NCBI GenBank assembly: GCA_006969385.1
Contig: CP030884.1
Span: 3,938,249-3,962,248 of the forward strand
Origin: Planctomycetaceae bacterium
GTDB lineage: Bacteria > Planctomycetota > Phycisphaerae > UBA1845 > UTPLA1
Direction: 5' to 3'
Length of the DNA: 24,000 nt
A program made the translations under genes and the position numbers. Below the pieces are notes generated by a model, which worked only from the letters and a program-made list of their open reading frames with translations, made no database searches and was not told the DNA's origin. Every line of letters begins with the position of its first letter. Position 1 is the first letter of the stretch. Shown here piece by piece: positions 1 through 8,439 of this stretch.

Positions 1-685
1 TGGCATAGATCCGATTGTTGGTGGTATAGACCAAGCTCAGCGCGTTGCGCAAACCCGGTGCCCATACGCTGACATCGCGACCGCCCAGTTGATCGACAAT
101 ATTGCCGAAGACCTGGTCCATATTGAGATTGCCGGTGGCAGGATCGATGTAGGTAACGGCACCGTCGAAGTCGGGTCGCCACACTTCGGCTTTCAGAATT
201 GCCGCCGATAGCGGTGATTCGGGTACGTCGCCGATGTTGCAATTGGGCACGCCGGCGTTGGTGTTACCACCGCTGCAAATCAGCAGGTTGCCGAAGTTAT
301 CAACCGTCATGCCGTTAACGCTGTGATCGTGATTGGAGACCGGAAGGCCGGTGATAAGCGGTTCGGCCACATTGAAGTTGGGGCCGGTGAGTACCGAGAC
401 TTGCCCCGAGTACGGCGAGAAGCCTTCGAAACATGCGCCGCCGTTGGCGAATAGTTCGCCGTGGGCGACGTAAAGCTTGACGGTACCGGGCGCATCGAAC
501 GGGCTAGTGGTGATGCCGAGGATGCCCTTGTTGGACAGGGTCGTTAGCGTGTTGATCACTTGGGTATTCGTAACGTTGTAATTGTCGTCGAACGTGTAGG
601 CTTCGATCTTGCCGTTGATGTTGGCGACGTAGAGACGACCGTCGGCACCCCATGTAAGGGCCGTGGGTTTGGCGATCGCGGCGGC
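1..685 (-). other. Beta-propeller region (SGL / soluble quinoprotein sugar-dehydrogenase-like), aa 1795 to window edge; truncated
   Basis: KPTALTWGADGRLYVANINGKIEAYTF, ...GILGITTSPF...KLYVAHGE, ...SNHDHSVNGMTVDNFGNLLICSGGNTNAG. The blade-like periodicity is recalled from the GSDH/SGL family. Tentative. Confidence 0.4.
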
Positions 686-3600
686 GTCGGCGAGCGCGAA
701 GATTGTCGGTACGGGACCGGAGGTGGTGTACAAAAATTGCTTGACGTTGCTGACGCCGTTGGGTGTTTCAACGGTGAAGTCGATGATGCCGTCGCCCGGT
801 GGCGAAATGAAGTCGATGCGGCTGGGCGTGATCGTGAGGTCGGCGCCGGTGATATCCTGCGCGCCCCAATGCACGACGACTTGATCGGCGGGGAAGAAGC
901 CGAGGCCTGTTAGCGTGATGAGATTGCCGCCGGCATCAATGCCTTCGTCGGGGGCCGTGTTGATGATCGGTCGCAGGCCGGTTTGATCGTGGCTCAGCGC
1001 GGCAATCGAAATATCGATGATGGCACCGCCGCCGAGTTGCCATGCGAGCGCCAACGGTGCATCGGCGATGTCGTTGACGGCAAAGCGCGCTTCGAGCGTG
1101 TGGGCGCCGGTCGTCAGGTTGATCGGACCGCTGACGAGATTGCCGTCCACCCACAGGCGCGATTCGGTACCGCCGCCGCTATAGAAGGTGTAGTTACCCG
1201 CCTGTGTAACGTTAACGGTGGTATTGATGCGGGCAAGCACGTTGCCGGTGTAAGGCGAGTTACCCAGCGTAGCGTTGTCATCGTTGATGTAAAGCGTGCT
1301 GACCACTTCGCCAAAGTTTGCGGTAGCGGGCGGATTGTCGATCAGCGTTTGCGGATTGCCGCTGTAATAGCGCACCAGCGCACCGGGCACGGCGTCGGGG
1401 CCAACGACGCGGAAGGTTTCTTCCAACGCGAGCTGTTCCGGTGGAATGTTGTCATCGTAGATGGTCAGCCGCACCGTGTGTTCGCCGACAGGGAAGGTGT
1501 GCGTCGTATCCATCGTGGTCGCGAATATCTGACCGTTCTGAGTCCACTCGAACGCTTCCAATTCATGACCGAGTTCGTGGGTATGCGAATCGCGACCCAG
1601 CAGCGTCACGGGTTCGCTACCGTTCTGGTCGTAGTCGACGGTGACCGGATCGACATCGATGACGACGTGCAGGAACGGATGGCCGGTTTCTTCACCGCCG
1701 ATTCCGCTGAGCGACACGTGTTGCGGCGGGAAGTTGCCTCGAAATTCGACGTCAACGTTGTTGGCGATGGGCGTATTCGGTGCGAACAGCAAGCTGCCTT
1801 GCAGGTTAGCGCCGGGAGCCAAGTCGATATCGACGGGATGAATGACATCGCCAGCCGCGCCGGTTAAATCGAGGCCGGGCAGGCTGAGCGTGAAATCTTC
1901 GCCGCCGCCGTCGTTCACTTGAAACGCAATCGACGAGATGTTGATCGGTTCGCTGCCGTCGTTGGTGAGCGTGAGCGTTTGAACGAAGCCGGCTTGCCCC
2001 AGCGGCACGTGGCCCCAGGATACAAACGTCGGATCGAGCGTTAGTTCGCCCGCGCTGAGTTGCACGACTTCGATCGCCGAAATTTTCGGGTTCTGCGCGA
2101 CCTTCGCCAGTGCGATGACGATATCGCCGTCGAGCACTTGCAAGTCATATGTTTGAACCGTCGCGGTGCGGAAGCCCGCGACGGCGGCGATATCAAAGTT
2201 ATCGAGTACGAGGTTTCCATTCACGAACACATCGAAGACGCGCACGCCGGGGTTTTGCGCGCCGGACCAAATCTCGGCGAAGTGCATCCGCACGCGATAC
2301 GTGCCCGGATCGACCGGAAGCGTGAACACGAGGTTTTGCGTACTGCTTTCGATGAAGCGCTCGGATTGATAGAGCGTGTCGTTTTCGGTATTAGCAATGG
2401 CGGCGGTGCTGGTGAACGATCCGCCGCTATTGTAGAAGCCGGCATCGGACGACCAAAAGTTGCCGTCGCCATCGGTGTAATCCGGGCCGCCGGCGTTTAG
2501 GCGATAAATGACGAATTCGTCGTTGCTGCCGGTGTCTTCGATCAACGTGACGGTGACGCTGTCGGTTGCTGCGGGGCCGGGAATCGGTTGATGGCTGGTA
2601 TCGGCAAAGAACACCGTCACGGTGTAAGTGCCGGGAGGCAGCGGGCCGAGCGTGGTCGAACCGTTGAGGTTCATGCTCATCGTGGGCGCTTCGTCGTCGA
2701 GTTGGATATGTACGTGATTGACGGTGCTTAAATCACCCGTCGATGCCCACGACACGTCGATCGTGTCGCCAACGATCGTGCTGTTGTTGGCGGGGGTGGT
2801 GATGGTGATCGTCGGCGGCGTGGTAACCACTTCTTCGGTTGTAAACGACACGCTGTCGGTTGCTTCGGGATTGGTAAGCTCGCCATCGCCGCTATCCACG
2901 AGCGTTACCGTAAGCGTGTGATTGCCGGGCGCGACGTTATTGAAGGTGAGCGAACCCGTTAGATTGAGGCTCATCTGCATCGGTTCGTCATCGAGCTGCA
3001 CGTGCACATGGTCGACGCTGCTGAGGTCGCCGCTGGTCTGCCATTGTGCGATAAAGCTGGTGCCCATCAGTGTTGCGCCGTTGTTCGGCGCGAGAATGTT
3101 AACCGTCGGTGGCAAGGGTGCGGCGTCGCCGAGGATTTCGATGCCGGAGACTTTGGGGTTTTCAAAGTTATGAATGAACTCAATGTTGAGCGTGCCGTCG
3201 GTGACCGTCGTTTCAAACTCGTGCACATCGGCCGTGAGCGGGCCGACTTCCGCGACGATGTCGTAATCAGTAAGCACGGTGGCACCTTCGATGGCCACAT
3301 TCATCACGCGCCGCGCGGGTTGCGTCCAATACGTTTCGGCAAAGTGCAAACGCACGGTATAGCTGCCTGCTGCGACCGGGAACTCGAACATCATCTCAGG
3401 AGCCGACGATGAATCCCAACGGCAGGAACGATACAAGGGGTCGTTGTCGGTGCCGGCGATCTCGGTGCCGCTATTAACGACTGAGCTATTGCCGATGTTG
3501 TAATAACCGGCGTCGGATTCCCAGGTATTGCCAAGGTTGTCGGTGTAGGTGGGGCCGCCAACGTTGATGCGATACAAGGCATCGTCACTGCCGGGCTGCG

Positions 3601-6067
3601 GCACGAGCGTGACCGTGACGACCTTCGTCGCTTCCGGGTTGAGCAGCGGGGCTTGGCCGACATCCACCAATGAAACGGTGATCGTGTAAGTGCCCGGCAA
3701 GAGGGGCAACGCGACCATGCCGTTGAGCGGCAGCAGCGTTTGTGGGTTTTCTTCGTCGAGTTGTACGTGTACGTGCGCTGCGTCGGTGAGGTCGCCCGAG
3801 CTGTTCCACGAGACCATGATTTCGTCGCCGGTGATGGTGGCACCGTTGAATGGCGAAGTAAGCGTGAGCGTCGGCGGTTCGATCGGATTGCCGGTCGACG
3901 TGAAGCCGACGCTGTCATATGCCTCAACATTGGGCAGATTTTGATGGTTGGCATCAACGATGTTGATCTCAAAGGTATGCGAGCCGGGGGCCACGCCGGT
4001 GAACGTAAAGCTGCCGGTCAGGTCGGGCCGCATGATGATGCCGCCGTTATCGAGCCGCAGGTGCACGTGGTTGGCGTCGGTCAGATCGCCCGTGGTTTGC
4101 CATTGCACGGTGATGGCGTTGCCGTTGATCGATTCGCCTTCAGTTGGTGAGGTGATGTTGATTGTGGGCGGATCGGGCGTGTTGTCGACGGTAATGAATC
4201 CAACGGTATCAAACGCTTCGGCGTTGGGCAGGTCTTGATGATTGGCATCGACGAGATTGACTTCAATCGTATGCGCACCGGCCGCAACACCGCTAAAAGT
4301 GTACGAACCGCTGAGTGTGGGTCGCATGATGATGCCGCCGTTGTCGAGGCGCAAGTGAACGTGATTGGCGTTTACCAAATTGCCGGATGATTGCCACTGC
4401 ACGGTGACTTCGTCGACGTCGATCGATGCGCCTTCAGTCGGCGCGAGGATCGTGACGGTCGCCGGAAGGGGCGGTGCAGCGTCGGTCGTGAAGGTGACGA
4501 CCGCAGACGCTTCGGGGTTGGGCAGGTTTTGATGAACCGCATCGACGAGGTTTACCTGCAATGTGTGTGCACCAGCAGCGAGATCGGTGAACGTATAGCT
4601 GCTGTCGAGATTCATCTGCATCACAACGGGCCGATCATCGAGTTGCAGATGCACGTGGTTGACCTGCGACAAGTCGCCGGTGGATACCCATTGAACGGTG
4701 ACGGCCGAATCGGAGATGACCTGACCTTCGGTCGGGCTGATCACGTCGATGGTCGGCGGCGTCGGTTGCACCGGGGTATCGCTCAGGATTTCGATGGCCG
4801 AAACCTTTGGGTTCTCGAAGTCGTGCAGAAACTCGACATTCAACACGCCGTCGGACACGGTTGTTTCAAACTCGCGAATATCCGCGGTGAATGCGCCGAC
4901 TTCCGCAACAAGGTCGAGGCCGCTGATGACATTGGTGCCTTCGATGGCGACGCCAAAAACGCGGCGATTCGGCTGCGTCCAGTAGATCTCGGCAAAGTGC
5001 AGGCGCACGGTGTACTCGCCGTTGGTGACCGGGAACGAATACACCATTTCGCTGCCGGACGCCGAATCCCACCGACCGGTCTGGTAAATCGTATCGATTT
5101 CGGTGTTGGCAATTTGCGTAGCCGCGTGAACCTGCTCTTTTTTGCCGGTGTTGTAGAAGCCCATGTCGGACATCCACAAGTGGCCGTTCTGATCGACATA
5201 GTTCGGGCCGCCGGCATTGACGCGATAGTAAGCGGTGACCGGCGCGTTGAGTGCGATCTGCGTGATGCAGGTTACGCTGCAACCGTTGTTGTCGGTGACG
5301 TCAACGCTATAGAAGCCGTCTTGATCGATCGTGACGCTGTTGTTGGTTTCACCGCTGTGCGGCCAGAAGTAAGACTCGTAACCGGGCGTGGCAGTCAGTA
5401 GCACATCGGTCTGCTGATAGGTGGGTGCGATCACAAGGGAGGGCGGCAGGGCCGAGTTGGTATCGATCGTGATTTGATCGGCACCTCCAAAACCATCGCT
5501 GACGGTCACGATGAATTGATCGACTGGCTCGTCGACGTCGGCGGCTTGATAACAAAGCGTGACTTGCCCGCCGACGCTTCCGTTTACGAAACTTGCCGTG
5601 CCGAATTCGGGTGGCGTGGCGATCGACCAAATCAGATTCTCGGTATCACCCAGATTCGGGTCGACGGCTTCGAGTTGAATCGCGTTGCGCGCGCTGGGGC
5701 ACGTATCGCAGAAAACATTGTTGAGTAGCGCAATATCGCCCGTCGTGATCTGCGGGGCGAAGTTACACGGGGTGCCCATGAGAATGCCGACGAAGCCGGG
5801 GATGTCGTCGACCGTGATGAGATCGTCGGCGGCGCACGGATCGCCGGGCGAACCGATATCGGCGGCGTCGAGTTCGTCCGCCGTCGGTGTTTGCGGATTC
5901 ACAATCAGCTCGATGAAGCTCGGGATATCCGCGCCGTTGGTTTCGCCGTCACCGTTGGTATCGCCCGGTTCGAATGCGCCACACGAGGCGGCGCACATCA
6001 GGACGAGCGCGCAGCACAAGCGCGCGGTGGTCGACCACGTATTGATTAAATGATCTCTAAGCGGCAT
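1..6067 (-). CDS. Giant secreted/lipoprotein-type multidomain glycan-binding protein, 5' end complete, 3' end beyond window (>=2022 aa)
   Basis: Absent from the ORF track because no stop lies in the window. Hand reverse-complement translation from ATG 6067..6065 gives 2022 sense codons plus 1 nt down to position 1. Frame is coordinates 1 mod 3; spot checks: Val973 = 3151..3149, Gln1336 = 2062..2060. N-terminus MPLRDHLINTWSTTARLCCALVLMCAASCGAFEPGDTNGDGETNGADIPSFIELIV. The last residues read are ...RNALSLVYTTNNRIYA. Coherent domain grammar throughout (see sub-features). Every other minus-strand ORF listed in this span is in a different frame. Confidence 0.85.
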   Translation of the reverse strand, partial: MPLRDHLINTWSTTARLCCALVLMCAASCGAFEPGDTNGDGETNGADIPSFIELIVNPQTPTADELDAADIGSPGDPCAADDLITVDDIPGFVGILMGTPCNFAPQITTGDIALLNNVFCDTCPSARNAIQLEAVDPNLGDTENLIWSIATPPEFGTASFVNGSVGGQVTLCYQAADVDEPVDQFIVTVSDGFGGADQITIDTNSALPPSLVIAPTYQQTDVLLTATPGYESYFWPHSGETNNSVTIDQDGFYSVDVTDNNGCSVTCITQIALNAPVTAYYRVNAGGPNYVDQNGHLWMSDMGFYNTGKKEQVHAATQIANTEIDTIYQTGRWDSASGSEMVYSFPVTNGEYTVRLHFAEIYWTQPNRRVFGVAIEGTNVISGLDLVAEVGAFTADIREFETTVSDGVLNVEFLHDFENPKVSAIEILSDTPVQPTPPTIDVISPTEGQVISDSAVTVQWVSTGDLSQVNHVHLQLDDRPVVMQMNLDSSYTFTDLAAGAHTLQVNLVDAVHQNLPNPEASAVVTFTTDAAPPLPATVTILAPTEGASIDVDEVTVQWQSSGNLVNANHVHLRLDNGGIIMRPTLSGSYTFSGVAAGAHTIEVNLVDANHQDLPNAEAFDTVGFITVDNTPDPPTINITSPTEGESINGNAITVQWQTTGDLTDANHVHLRLDNGGIIMRPDLTGSFTFTGVAPGSHTFEINIVDANHQNLPNVEAYDSVGFTSTGNPIEPPTLTLTSPFNGATITGDEIMVSWNSSGDLTDAAHVHVQLDEENPQTLLPLNGMVALPLLPGTYTITVSLVDVGQAPLLNPEATKVVTVTLVPQPGSDDALYRINVGGPTYTDNLGNTWESDAGYYNIGNSSVVNSGTEIAGTDNDPLYRSCRWDSSSAPEMMFEFPVAAGSYTVRLHFAETYWTQPARRVMNVAIEGATVLTDYDIVAEVGPLTADVHEFETTVTDGTLNIEFIHNFENPKVSGIEILGDAAPLPPTVNILAPNNGATLMGTSFIAQWQTSGDLSSVDHVHVQLDDEPMQMSLNLTGSLTFNNVAPGNHTLTVTLVDSGDGELTNPEATDSVSFTTEEVVTTPPTITITTPANNSTIVGDTIDVSWASTGDLSTVNHVHIQLDDEAPTMSMNLNGSTTLGPLPPGTYTVTVFFADTSHQPIPGPAATDSVTVTLIEDTGSNDEFVIYRLNAGGPDYTDGDGNFWSSDAGFYNSGGSFTSTAAIANTENDTLYQSERFIESSTQNLVFTLPVDPGTYRVRMHFAEIWSGAQNPGVRVFDVFVNGNLVLDNFDIAAVAGFRTATVQTYDLQVLDGDIVIALAKVAQNPKISAIEVVQLSAGELTLDPTFVSWGHVPLGQAGFVQTLTLTNDGSEPINISSIAFQVNDGGGEDFTLSLPGLDLTGAAGDVIHPVDIDLAPGANLQGSLLFAPNTPIANNVDVEFRGNFPPQHVSLSGIGGEETGHPFLHVVIDVDPVTVDYDQNGSEPVTLLGRDSHTHELGHELEAFEWTQNGQIFATTMDTTHTFPVGEHTVRLTIYDDNIPPEQLALEETFRVVGPDAVPGALVRYYSGNPQTLIDNPPATANFGEVVSTLYINDDNATLGNSPYTGNVLARINTTVNVTQAGNYTFYSGGGTESRLWVDGNLVSGPINLTTGAHTLEARFAVNDIADAPLALAWQLGGGAIIDISIAALSHDQTGLRPIINTAPDEGIDAGGNLITLTGLGFFPADQVVVHWGAQDITGADLTITPSRIDFISPPGDGIIDFTVETPNGVSNVKQFLYTTSGPVPTIFALADAAAIAKPTALTWGADGRLYVANINGKIEAYTFDDNYNVTNTQVINTLTTLSNKGILGITTSPFDAPGTVKLYVAHGELFANGGACFEGFSPYSGQVSVLTGPNFNVAEPLITGLPVSNHDHSVNGMTVDNFGNLLICSGGNTNAGVPNCNIGDVPESPLSAAILKAEVWRPDFDGAVTYIDPATGNLNMDQVFGNIVDQLGGRDVSVWAPGLRNALSLVYTTNNRIYA
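722..973 (-). other. IPT/TIG-like domain, aa 1699-1782
   Basis: PIINTAPDEGIDAGGNLITLTGLGFFPADQVVVHWGAQDI...RIDFISPPGDGIIDFTVETPNGVSN. Pattern P.I..[IV].P..G...GG..[IV]T[IL.]G.GF. Confidence 0.5.
1013..1387 (-). other. PA14-like carbohydrate-binding domain, aa 1561-1685
   Basis: GALVRYYSGNPQTL...ARINTTVNVTQAGNYTFYSGGGTESRLWVDGNLV...GAHTLEARF. Typical PA14 pattern: G[LW]...Y+ ... G.Y.F....DD...L.[IV]DG..V. Confidence 0.55.
1403..1666 (-). other. PKD-like domain, aa 1468-1555
   Basis: LEAFEWTQNGQIFATTMDTTHTFPVGEHTVRLTIYDDN resembles the PKD pattern W.......G....H.[FY]...G.Y.V.L.V.D. Confidence 0.4.
1697..2047 (-). other. Ig-like beta-sandwich (choice-of-anchor-D / ASH-like), aa 1341-1457
   Basis: LTLDPTFVSWGHVPLGQAGFVQTLTLTNDGSEPINISSIAF...DLAPGANLQGSLLFAP...VSLSGIG. 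Pattern L.P..[LV].[FW]G.V..G......L.L.N.G...L.I. Confidence 0.4.
2060..2518 (-). other. Malectin-like carbohydrate-binding domain 3 (aa 1184-1336), more diverged
   Basis: IYRLNAGGPDYTDGDGNFWSSDAGFYNSGG...LYQSERF...YRVRMHFAEIWSGAQNPGVRVFDVFVNGNLVLDNFDI...NPKISAIEVV. Confidence 0.7.
2543..3112 (-). repeat. Two further tandem 98-aa His-x-His repeats, R5-R6 (aa 986-1175)
   Basis: PPTVNILAPNNGATL...GDLSSVDHVHVQLDD and PPTITITTPANNSTI...GDLSTVNHVHIQLDD. HVH at aa 1020-1022 and 1118-1120, the same 98-aa register as R1-R4. Confidence 0.8.
3128..3583 (-). other. Malectin-like carbohydrate-binding domain 2 (aa 829-980)
   Basis: LYRINVGGPTYTDNLGNTWESDAGYYNIG...LYRSCRWDS...YTVRLHFAETYWTQPARRVMNVAIEG...DGTLNIEF...NPKVSGIEIL. 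Confidence 0.75.
3602..4759 (-). repeat. Four tandem 98-aa (294-nt) His-x-His Ig-like repeats, R1-R4 (aa 437-822), DUF4399-like
   Basis: Repeat starts PPT at aa 437 and 633 (R1, R3), PAT at 535 (R2), PPT at 731 (R4). Invariant HVH at aa 471-473, 569-571, 667-669 and 765-767. R2 and R3 share ANHVHLRLDNGGIIMRP. The identical 20-mer cgcatgatgatgccgccgtt occurs at 4029..4048 and 4323..4342, exactly 294 nt apart. Confidence 0.85.
4778..5236 (-). other. Malectin-like carbohydrate-binding domain 1 (aa 278-430)
   Basis: YYRVNAGGPNYVDQNGHLWMSDMGFYNTG...IYQTGRWDS...YTVRLHFAEIYWTQPNRRVFGVAIEG...DGVLNVEF...NPKVSAIEIL. This is the remembered malectin signature. Confidence 0.75.
5774..5965 (-). other. Dockerin-like / EF-hand calcium-loop pair (aa 35-98)
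   Basis: GDTNGDGETNGADIPSFIELIV matches the dockerin repeat pattern D.N.DG..N..D(I)..F. A second, degenerate copy is ADIGSPGDPCAADDLITVDDIPGFVGILMG. Confidence 0.5.
5981..6067 (-). other. Signal peptide with possible lipobox (AAS|C29) of the giant protein
   Basis: Basic n-region (R4, R16), hydrophobic LCCALVLMCAA, then S-C-G. Only a loose match to the L-[AS]-[GA]-C lipobox. Confidence 0.5.
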
Positions 6068-6228
6068 TCGTTCCCCGTCACGAAAAGGCCACAAGTCTGC
6101 GCGGATTGTCCCCCACAAACCGCACCGATTATACTCAGCCGAAATTGCGATTAGAAGCCTCATTATCGGTTGGGCGGGGTATTTCGTTGCTTATCGCCCG
6201 TTCGCCGAATCCGCCAGCGGGAGGTCTT

Positions 6229-8439
6229 ATGTTTCCGAATTCGAAGCCAAGCCGGTTGCCTTGTTTAATGCCGATCGGTCGCCGATTTATTGCGTTTTTT
6301 GCGGTCTTGGTGCCGATGGCCGTTTTCGGCTGTGGCGATGGCGCGTCCTCATTTCCGAATCTGATCGGGGACGTGGTGATTGAAGGCCGCGTCCGAGATA
6401 GCAGCGGCTTCGGGATTCCGGGCGTAATTGTGGCGGCCAGCGGCGTGCGCGAGGCCGGCGTGACGGACCCGGCGGGTCGTTATCAATTGGCGGTTCCGGG
6501 CGGTTGGTCGGGGACGATTCGGCCGCAAAAACAAGATTTTGTGTTTTCGCCAACGGAAAAACTGATGGATGCCGCAGGGCAAGATGGCGTCGATTTCGTA
6601 GCAACGATGCGCTCGACGCCCACGACATACAATGGCCATCAAGTCGATTTATGCGGCGACCCGAATTCGAGTGAAAGCGCCGCTACGTCTGAGTTGATTA
6701 TCGAAGCGCCGCCGGTCGTGCGTATTTCCAACGGTGGCTCGTCGGCGCAGGTGCGCTTGGATGGTTCGGGAAGCCGCTTGCCCGATGGCAGTCGCATCGA
6801 ATGGCGCAATGGCGGCGTGCCGATTGCGTTTGATTTGACGGCAACCGTCGATTTGCCAGTGGGCCGTCATGATGTGGAGTTGGTGTCGATTCAGCCGAAC
6901 GGCACGGAGCGCTCGCGGTCGGTAATTATCAACGTGATTACGGAAGGGCCGCAGACGATTTACGTCGATGCGGATCATCCGTCGGCAAACGATGGTAATA
7001 CGGGCACGGCCGACACACCGCTGGCCACGATACAAGCGGGCGTGGATAAGGCGCGAGCGGGTGATGTCGTCGTGGTGCGCTCGGGAACATATTACCGAAA
7101 TCATCCGTCGGTGAATCGACCGGTGGTGCTGATGGAGAATCGACACGGTACGGCGGAGCAGCCGATCACGATCACCGCCGATACGGGCGCGATGCCGCGC
7201 GTGACGGGCATGCGACCGGGGGCGGAACGCGGTAATACGGGCTGGCGCATCGTCGATTCGTCGTGGATTGTGATCAACGGTTTTCGGTTTGAGAACTTGA
7301 ACGGTGTCGGGTTGGATATCGAAGCGAGTTCACCGGGGGCGACGCATCATATCGACGTGTTGGAATGCAGTGCCGAGCGCTGCAGCCAAGGACCGAACAC
7401 ATTTGTCGGTGCGCTGCGCGCCGTGGGGCCGGTGCGGAACGTCTCGTTCAAGAACTGTATGATCTCCAATAGCAGTAGCGGCATCGTGTTGCGCGAAGCG
7501 CCGGTGCAAACGCGCGAAACGGCAGCCGTGCCGCCCAAGGCGGGCAACAACGCGCCGGGTGCGCCGGGCGGGCGGTACAGCAGCGACTTGGCCGAGTCGG
7601 CCTGGGCCGATTGGTGCGGGTGGGATCAGATCGCGCCGAAACATTGTGTTATCGAGAATTGTCTGAGCTTTAACAACCGCCAAGTGCCCGAACATAGCGA
7701 TGGCTTCGGCACGCGCTACGCGACGCACTGCATCATCAAAGACAACATCGCTTTCGGTAATGCCGACGACAACTTCGACCTGCTGGGCGGCACGCACTTA
7801 ACGGTGACAGGTAATATTGCGTTTAACGGCAATCCGGAAAACACGGAGGCGGGCGACGGCAATGGGATAAAGGTCGGTGTGCGCGGCGGCTTGGATTGTT
7901 TGGTCGCATTTAACATTTCGTTCGACAACCGCCGCATGGGGTTGGACATGGGCGATACCGAGCGCGGGCGCGTGTTTCATAACACGATCGTAAATAATGG
8001 TGCCGGCCATCCGAACGGATTCGGCATGTGGTTCGAGGGCGGGCGCTCAAGTGCGGGCCATCAGGTGATGTTTAACATCTTGCAGGGCAACGGGCTAAAC
8101 ACGTCGCGCGGTGATTACGGCGCGGCGCGGCACGTGAGCTTCGCGGCCAGCGATTACAACAGCATGAGCGATAGCCACAGCCATAACTTCGCCGGTCCGA
8201 GCGGTAGCCACGATCGCGTGGGGGACAATGTTGAATTTGTCGCCGGGGATGCCGCGGTAAGCCCCGTCTTTGTTGAGGGGATGTCGATTGCACAACGCAT
8301 CAATCTGGTGCGGCAGCAAGTGCGCAACAAATTTATGCTCGCGCCGGGCAGCCCCTTACGCGGATCGGCGACGGTGGTTGGTGGCGTGAATGACGGCGTG
8401 ACGAGGCCGGGGGGAAATTGGGGCGCGGTGCAGGAGTAA
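6229..8439 (+). CDS. Right-handed parallel beta-helix repeat lipoprotein (pectate-lyase fold) with N-terminal carboxypeptidase-regulatory-like and PKD/Ig-like domains
   Basis: The track gives a TTG start at 6106. I prefer ATG 6229, which is preceded by GGGAGG (6219..6224); ATG 6268 is an alternative. Signal plus lipobox: MFPNSKPSRLPCLMPIGRRFIAFFAVLVPMAVFG|C. CarboxypepD_reg-like: IEGRVRDSSGFGIPGVIVAASGVREAGVTDPAGRYQLAVPGG. Beta-helix cap: IYVDADHPSANDGNTGTADTPLATIQAGVDKARAGDVVVVRSGTYY. PbH1-type turns: NIAFGNADDNFDL, GNIAFNGNPEN, NISFDNRRMGLDM, HNTIVNNG. Confidence 0.85.
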   Translation: MFPNSKPSRLPCLMPIGRRFIAFFAVLVPMAVFGCGDGASSFPNLIGDVVIEGRVRDSSGFGIPGVIVAASGVREAGVTDPAGRYQLAVPGGWSGTIRPQKQDFVFSPTEKLMDAAGQDGVDFVATMRSTPTTYNGHQVDLCGDPNSSESAATSELIIEAPPVVRISNGGSSAQVRLDGSGSRLPDGSRIEWRNGGVPIAFDLTATVDLPVGRHDVELVSIQPNGTERSRSVIINVITEGPQTIYVDADHPSANDGNTGTADTPLATIQAGVDKARAGDVVVVRSGTYYRNHPSVNRPVVLMENRHGTAEQPITITADTGAMPRVTGMRPGAERGNTGWRIVDSSWIVINGFRFENLNGVGLDIEASSPGATHHIDVLECSAERCSQGPNTFVGALRAVGPVRNVSFKNCMISNSSSGIVLREAPVQTRETAAVPPKAGNNAPGAPGGRYSSDLAESAWADWCGWDQIAPKHCVIENCLSFNNRQVPEHSDGFGTRYATHCIIKDNIAFGNADDNFDLLGGTHLTVTGNIAFNGNPENTEAGDGNGIKVGVRGGLDCLVAFNISFDNRRMGLDMGDTERGRVFHNTIVNNGAGHPNGFGMWFEGGRSSAGHQVMFNILQGNGLNTSRGDYGAARHVSFAASDYNSMSDSHSHNFAGPSGSHDRVGDNVEFVAGDAAVSPVFVEGMSIAQRINLVRQQVRNKFMLAPGSPLRGSATVVGGVNDGVTRPGGNWGAVQE

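Follow-up and report, generated by a model that had tools for sequence, protein, structure and literature searches.

The subject of this analysis is a gene on the minus strand of a 24,000-nucleotide (nt) stretch of Planctomycetaceae bacterium contig CP030884.1 (the window). The gene encodes a giant protein in which six 98-residue repeats are interleaved with three malectin domains in the order Mal-R4-Mal-R2-Mal (four repeats, R1 to R4, between the first two malectin domains and two, R5 and R6, before the third). We found that an invariant His-Val-His motif (HVH; residues H35 and H37 of each repeat) is accompanied in related domains by a third histidine, H76. On balance, we lean slightly toward the view that the repeats are semi-independent immunoglobulin (Ig)-type stalk modules, each with a predicted tri-His transition-metal site, which keep the three malectin domains of a secreted surface protein apart. 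The parts of this view that were computed are the build and fold of the repeats, their family ties, the joint conservation of the three histidines, copy number, and duplication history.

Results

A sequence-only reading of this DNA had described six units in exact 294-nt register around an invariant HVH, and the reading frame, the repeat borders, the alignment, and BLASTP all bear this out. The sole long frame over positions 2060-5236 is on the minus strand (window 2..6163), with its 3′ end open at the window's left edge. Within it, every repeat is exactly 294 nt, and HVH lies at residues 503, 601, 699, 797, 1052, and 1150 (codons at window 4649-4657, 4355-4363, 4061-4069, 3767-3775, 3002-3010, and 2708-2716), with a spacing of 98 residues inside each block. 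Residue numbers are counted from the ATG at 6163 and equal the earlier ones, which were counted from the ATG at 6067, plus 32. The three malectin domains reported earlier were recovered by Pfam (Malectin, PF11721; 279.9 bits over three stretches of the protein).

Protein identity among the six copies is 38-63%, with 17 invariant columns in the alignment of the six repeats. BLASTP between repeats gave E values from 1e-18 for R1/R4, the most divergent pair tested, to 7e-50 for R2/R3, and the repeats are far beyond chance similarity. Tandem Repeats Finder did not report a 294-nt array, as DNA identity among the copies is only 37-70%; a separate DNA repeat-family search recovered a 294-spaced family around HVH (family D1). 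Thus, the periodicity shows up only in the protein sequence and in this family. The 17-mer ANHVHLRLDNGGIIMRP is indeed common to R2 and R3, as is an identical 20-nt run at 4029-4048 and 4323-4342. Losses of the later histidines were also as first described: R4 lacks both, R5 lacks the D..H histidine (H76), and R6 has Tyr in the G.HT motif, whose histidine is H65.

A profile of the six repeats matched 4294 proteins at E ≤0.001 among 1.84 billion cluster representatives, and 1018 domains from 270 proteins were re-aligned for motif counts. Domains with the H-x-H pattern (the HxH class) numbered 98, in 50 proteins; the majority carry H/Y-Y/F-E instead. H76 was present in 94% of HxH-class domains (counted outside the orthologue group of the giant protein) compared to 3% of the other domains, which resemble Pfam family Big_7. 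For H65, the corresponding values were 92% and 79%, and by these counts H65 is generic to Big_7-like domains. The partner of HVH suggested by these data is H76 and not the G.HT histidine, with H65 both generic and outside the modeled site described below. All three triad histidines are lost together in two orthologous repeats, P0008_r1 (residues 452-549) and P0013_r1 (residues 418-514), which have RVE or QVR for HVH and sit on long branches in the repeat tree; judging from these losses, the two are natural "dead" modules. The majority of repeat-profile hits fall in another large Big_7-like class, with a "D..SGIDH[YF]E", Trp45, and Asp73 signature (P0123, P0019, P0151, P0183, and others); tandem runs in one protein reach 20 copies or more.

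Using a 71-row alignment of homologous domains, AlphaFold2 modeled R3 as an eight-strand Ig/Fn3-like sandwich (predicted local distance difference test [pLDDT] 95.2, predicted template modeling score [pTM] 0.85), as expected if the repeats are the small Ig-like units first suggested. In this model HVH is at the beginning of strand 35-40 and G.HT at that of strand 63-72, with H76 in the loop that follows. From the strand order of the model, strand C would begin and strand F would end at one pole, which would bring H35/H37 and H76 together and leave H65 at the opposite pole. A tandem model of R2-R3 had a pLDDT of 95.6 and a pTM of only 0.62, which suggests confident domains with a loose mutual orientation, as in a segmented stalk. 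The best Foldseek matches in the PDB were Ig/Fn3-like modules of carbohydrate-active enzymes (CelAly B1, 9kvu; CbhA X1, 3pe9 and 3pdg; template modeling score ~0.71), and the search also returned the C-terminal domain of sulfite oxidase (~0.7).

When a complex predictor placed Zn on R3, the contacts were residues 35, 37, 47, 72, and 76 (H35, H37, M47, V72, and H76) in each of three runs. The ion model of R4 used the same pocket, with Gln in place of the third His. These models predict that H35, H37, and residue 76 (His; Gln in R4) can meet at one point. The earlier idea that the His pair binds a metal is made plausible by the contacts, by the co-occurrence of H76, and by the joint loss; the site would include H76, and binding itself is only predicted.

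In Cu,Zn-superoxide dismutase the Cu site consists of His-Val-His on a strand and a His from the adjacent strand, and the Zn site of carbonic anhydrase II consists of His94-x-His96 and His119. The modeled repeat resembles both in placing a His-x-His from a beta strand of a Greek-key sandwich and one more His around one ion; this likeness is one of modeled geometry and is an analogy only. Membership in the superoxide dismutase family, which H-V-H might suggest, was rejected, as Pfam scans gave no Sod_Cu match at E up to 1 and no superoxide dismutase was among the 50 best Foldseek matches. Unlike a true carbonic anhydrase, the giant protein and its repeats gave no sequence match to that family in Pfam scans.

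Each of the six single repeats passed the Big_7 model (PF17957; 28.1-35.4 bits, cut-off 24.1), which scored 124.8 bits over six stretches of the whole protein. For DUF4399 (PF14347), single repeats reached at most 26.1 bits against a cut-off of 28, with the matched stretch confined to the C-terminal third of the model; summed over the whole protein the score was 59.1 bits. A DUF4399 profile search of the genome gave 22.9 bits, below the cut-off, and nothing in this genome was above it; among 200 other genomes of the phylum searched, only one had a DUF4399 domain above the cut-off. The motif order of the repeats recurs in a bona fide DUF4399 domain of a different planctomycete genome (G157; 94.9 bits). 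Comparison of the 71-domain alignment with this domain by hhalign gave a probability of 88.8%, pairing H35 and H37 with the first and third His of MGHHHI and H76 with the His of ADAAH ("AD..H"). Thus, of the kinship to DUF4399 proposed from the letters alone, the summed score and the aligned histidines speak for it, while each single repeat stays below the cut-off and the family actually passed is Big_7.

The resemblance to DUF4399 extends to the length (~90 residues) and to the order of a P..G start, an H-x-H strand followed by [LI].[LI]D, "pG.[HY]", and "aD..H". The late "aD..H" histidine is in R1, R2, R3, and R6 and missing from R4 and R5. Unlike DUF4399, the repeats have a shorter loop from the HxH strand to the next strand and a core motif of [ND]-H-V-H, with Val for the middle His of HHH in all six copies. 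With Big_7, including the CbhA X1/Fn3-like modules (3pdd, 3pe9) and CelAly B1 (9kvu), they share the G.HT motif and the superposition noted above. In contrast, the Big_7 model stops at about repeat position 69-70, short of H76, and typical members have H/Y-Y/F-E at the position of H-V-H and rarely H76; solved members lack the His triad. By Pfam, 57 of 71 HxH-class domains matched Big_7, 19 DUF4399, and 8 DUF6130, and the repeat profile also found P0260, a multi-repeat DUF4399 protein (143 bits) with an intact triad. As judged from these profile comparisons, the repeats are a distinct subclass that bridges Big_7 and DUF4399 and is marked by the His triad. With its Big_7/DUF4399 modules in a malectin protein, the array amounts to a variant on domain families already catalogued and is no new kind of system.

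Other searches added little. No NCBIfam model matched the repeat. PDB sequence searches with repeat profiles gave weak generic Ig hits only (best, the CbhA X1/Fn3-like modules of 3pdd, E 7e-4), and the DUF4399 protein of G157 had no solved relative in a PDB sequence search. The ESM Atlas gave leads only, all below 0.9, to DUF4399, Big_7, and DUF6130 clusters. In the literature, we found DUF4399 mentioned only in passing, nothing on a His-triad subclass of Big_7, and nothing on malectin in planctomycetes. At the G157 locus (L012, G157:C1:6362600-6379000), genes for a secretin and for GspE-like and GspF-like proteins are followed immediately, on the same strand, by the gene for a bona fide DUF4399 lipoprotein with two domains; the four open reading frames (ORFs) beyond it have no Pfam match.

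Copy number differs among related genomes, as the sequence-only reading had anticipated. Four architectures were found among orthologues: M-R4-M-R2-M in the giant protein and P0003, M-R3-M-R2-M in P0004 (79% identity), M-R3-M in P0005-P0008, and M-R2-M in P0011-P0014. The main gene carries 6, 6, 3, 2, and 2 repeats in the five species of the genus compared, and each genome has one further copy in a second protein. In a repeat tree, R1-R3 formed an "internal" type, apart from a "last-before-malectin" type that comprises R4-R6 and the final repeat of relatives. In the malectin tree, Mal1 and Mal2 are paralogues of the N-terminal malectin of relatives, and Mal3 is the orthologue of the C-terminal one. 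By these two trees, the alternation is the product of one duplication of a Mal+repeat block.

The high identity of R2 and R3 had been taken as a sign of recent duplication or ongoing recombination. This did not hold: R2/R3 DNA identity is 70% (56% at third codon positions), and in the repeat tree R3 joins the second repeat of P0004 before it joins R2. For both reasons, the duplication is not recent, and beyond the one 20-nt run the sequences give no sign of ongoing conversion between R2 and R3.

In the proposal that we favor, the giant protein (~2600 residues) would be secreted, and probably lipid-anchored, on the surface of a Phycisphaerae-type planctomycete. Its three malectin (CBM57-type) glycan-binding domains would be kept apart by runs of 98-residue Ig/Fn3-like modules, with PA14, TIG, and a GSDH-like six-bladed-propeller region downstream of the array. 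In each module, H35 and H37 (strand C) and H76 (F-G loop) would converge at the module's N-terminal pole and hold one transition-metal ion. Candidate sites are those of R1, R2, R3, and R6, which have the full triad, of R5 (His-His-Asp), and of R4 (His-His-Gln). As beads of a stalk, the modules would set the spacing and reach of the lectin domains, and their number would shift within the genus (2 to 6 copies) by duplication or loss of units and blocks. Metal binding, metal identity, surface location, and the stalk role are the parts of this proposal that we infer.

Several observations weigh against it. The HxH class was picked by H35 and H37, making their invariance within the class circular; the link to H76 is non-circular. 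R4 and R5 retain HVH while lacking H76, so HVH may serve a function for which the third His is dispensable. No solved structure from the PDB sequence or Foldseek searches has a comparable His site or motif. The complex predictor gives no verdict for ions: R3 scored 0.95 with Zn, 0.93 with Ni, 0.93 with Fe(II), and 0.41 with Ca, and an unrelated protein with Zn scored 0.22, but the R4 run gave 0.86 compared to 0.85 for an unrelated protein, so the ion scores carry no weight and only the geometry is used. Finally, the neighborhood of the DUF4399 gene in G157 (one locus) contains type II secretion genes and no metal genes, though this locus is uninformative.

Some of the same data would fit plain spacers, that is, ordinary Ig-like linkers whose histidines serve fold stability or pH-dependent behavior and hold no ligand. 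The solved structures closest in fold, linker or X-type Ig modules from glycoside hydrolases, are not known to bind a ligand, the tandem model looks like beads on a string, loss of H76 is tolerated in R4 and R5 and loss of H65 in R4 and R6, and copy number is free to vary. However, three solvent-side histidines that co-occur (94% vs 3%) and are jointly lost exceed what a pure spacer needs, and the triad is also kept in DUF4399 proteins that lack any lectin in need of spacing. We regard plain spacers as unlikely.

The domain company of the HxH class bears on two further alternatives. Co-occurrence was sampled in 150 listed representatives from the top of a score-ranked list, with counts uncorrected for shared ancestry. 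HxH-class domains were in 25 of the 150, and only 2 of these 25 had malectin; the malectin association among orthologues came from a malectin-seeded search. Thus, the "strict alternation" with lectin domains, which had been read as a functional pairing, is real as a pattern of this array and traces to block duplication, while the subclass as such is not tied to malectin. Laminin_G_3 was present in 8 of the 25. Like other malectin/CBM57-type bacterial multidomain proteins, the giant protein has malectin domains (here three) homologous to animal malectin, and large secreted mixes of malectin with Ig, PKD, Kelch, and GSDH domains are common; what differs is the tri-His interleaving, which is confined to a small orthologue group and scattered other proteins.

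Could the modules bind sugar themselves, as carbohydrate-binding module (CBM)-like co-receptors for anionic sugars (uronic or sulfated polysaccharides) alongside malectin, the second suggestion of the sequence-only reading? Their host proteins invariably have lectin-type domains (malectin, Laminin_G_3, PA14), and the fold neighbors of the modules come from carbohydrate-active enzymes. Against such a role, the three histidines lie at a domain pole and lack the aromatic platform usual in CBMs, Pfam scans of the repeats and HxH-class domains matched no CBM family, and free-standing DUF4399 lipoproteins bear the same triad. We hold a carbohydrate site to be quite improbable.

Propellers were the most frequent company. 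A GSDH-like propeller was found in 11 of the 25 HxH proteins and a galactose-oxidase/Kelch-type propeller in 6 (17 of 25 together), compared to none of the 125 listed proteins that had only other Big_7-like domains; two further HxH proteins of the 25 have MopE copper motifs. In this genome, the module is in just two proteins, both among its eight GSDH-like loci. The second protein (locus L010, G000:C1:5092086-5096429, outside the window; ~1380-1450 residues) has one HxH-class module at locus residues ~1028-1120, a clear GSDH propeller (97 bits), PKD, and a C-terminal dockerin-like domain (22.2 bits, cut-off 22.9). Each of the other four genomes of this genus has a copy of it, as does one further genus of the family.

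These associations raise the idea of a type-2-like copper domain for redox or metal delivery, serving the extracellular sugar-oxidoreductase propeller of the same protein in the manner of the cytochrome domain of AA12 dehydrogenases. M47, which touches the modeled ion, is present in 23 of the 34 domains of the orthologue group, and accessory electron-transfer domains are known on pyrroloquinoline quinone (PQQ) propellers (PMC6881789, PMC5960967). The PQQ-dependent AA12 pyranose dehydrogenase likewise combines a secreted six-bladed GSDH-type propeller, a carbohydrate-binding module, and an accessory cofactor-binding domain, there a heme b cytochrome (PMC6881789, PMC5960967); here the accessory domain would be a tri-His Ig module, whose redox role is purely hypothetical. 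In its broadest form, this idea would make the HxH...H Ig module, as a bridge between Big_7 and DUF4399, a mononuclear copper domain not described before. The domain would relay electrons, or store and donate metal, for secreted sugar oxidoreductase propellers that depend on PQQ or copper. This broadest form seems to us a long shot. We rate the copper explanation of the giant protein as the least probable of those considered, since the co-occurrence is uncorrected for shared ancestry and comes from the top of a ranked list, the giant protein's own GSDH match is sub-threshold, redox activity and metal identity are conjectural, and it is difficult to see how six copies so distant from the propeller would form a relay.

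Discussion

The value of the array lies in its defined triad, its natural variant series, and its link to propellers. DUF4399 and much of Big_7 are without an assigned function. Six natural variants in one protein (four with the full triad, one His-His-Asp, and one His-His-Gln), together with the dead orthologous copies, make a ready mutant series for the metal question. If the module does hold a metal, its link to propellers would suggest that it serves planctomycetes and other environmental bacteria as a metal-dependent accessory in oxidizing polysaccharides outside the cell. If it holds none, the array would be a well-documented case of stalk-length variation through module duplication in a surface lectin. 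Should the improbable copper explanation be true, it would give DUF4399-type domains their first function and provide a bacterial counterpart of AA12 and cellobiose dehydrogenase cytochrome domains.

Gene structure and neighborhood

Table 1. Features of the giant gene within the window. Positions are window coordinates; residues are counted from the ATG at 6163.
Feature	Position (nt)	Residues	Strand	Remarks
Window part of giant gene	2..6067		-	Rest of ORF beyond left edge
Putative signal peptide, N-terminal	5981..6067		-	Lipobox-like AASC; inferred from inspection of the translation
Malectin domain 1 (Mal1)	4760..5236	310-468	-	Pfam Malectin; PDB malectin 2jwp, E 7e-15
Repeat R1	4466..4759	469-566	-	Triad H35, H37, H76 complete; H65 also present
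Repeat R2	4172..4465	567-664	-	His triad complete
Repeat R3	3878..4171	665-762	-	His triad complete; copy used for modeling
Repeat R4	3584..3877	763-860	-	HVH present; Gln at 76, G.YT for G.HT, one-residue deletion
Malectin domain 2 (Mal2)	3113..3583	861-1017	-	Paralogue of Mal1
Repeat R5	2819..3112	1018-1115	-	HVH and H65 present; Asp at 76
Repeat R6	2525..2818	1116-1213	-	HVH and H76 present; G.YT for G.HT; DUF4399 26.1 bits, highest single-repeat score
Malectin domain 3 (Mal3)	2054..2524	1214-1370	-	Orthologous to C-terminal malectin of two-malectin relatives
PA14-like stretch	1133..1312	1618-1677	-	Pfam; followed by IPT/TIG domains, then GSDH-like beta-propeller running past window edge

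The genome is a single 5.48-Mb contig, in which the full giant ORF spans G000:C1:3936594-3944411 (2605 codons from the ATG at 6163). The ATG at 6067 (M33, the second Met; 2573 residues) is the likelier start to judge by orthology, because P0003, a 93%-identical orthologue, has 2573 residues, the same length as the protein counted from M33. Right after the signal peptide (window 5774-6067, minus strand) is a dockerin/EF-hand-like loop pair, which Pfam Dockerin_1 matched below threshold (E 0.023). An element of this kind is also present at the C terminus of its paralogue, L010.

The C-terminal propeller scored 24.1 and 19.5 bits against GSDH (PF07995; cut-off 25) in two scans, and precomputed PF07995 hits are present on orthologues of the giant protein. 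The propeller region had no PDB sequence match. To the left of the window (G000:C1:3936594-3938248), protein residues ~2240-2605 contain one TIG domain and otherwise no Pfam match over ~370 residues; this part may be an uncharacterized C-terminal domain or anchor.

The divergent neighbor of the giant gene (window 6229-8439, plus strand) encodes a protein of 736 residues whose N-terminal domain is CarboxypepD_reg-like and which also contains a right-handed beta-helix (Beta_helix, 30.4 bits). This neighbor is possibly a lyase or hydrolase of polysaccharides that partners the lectin protein.

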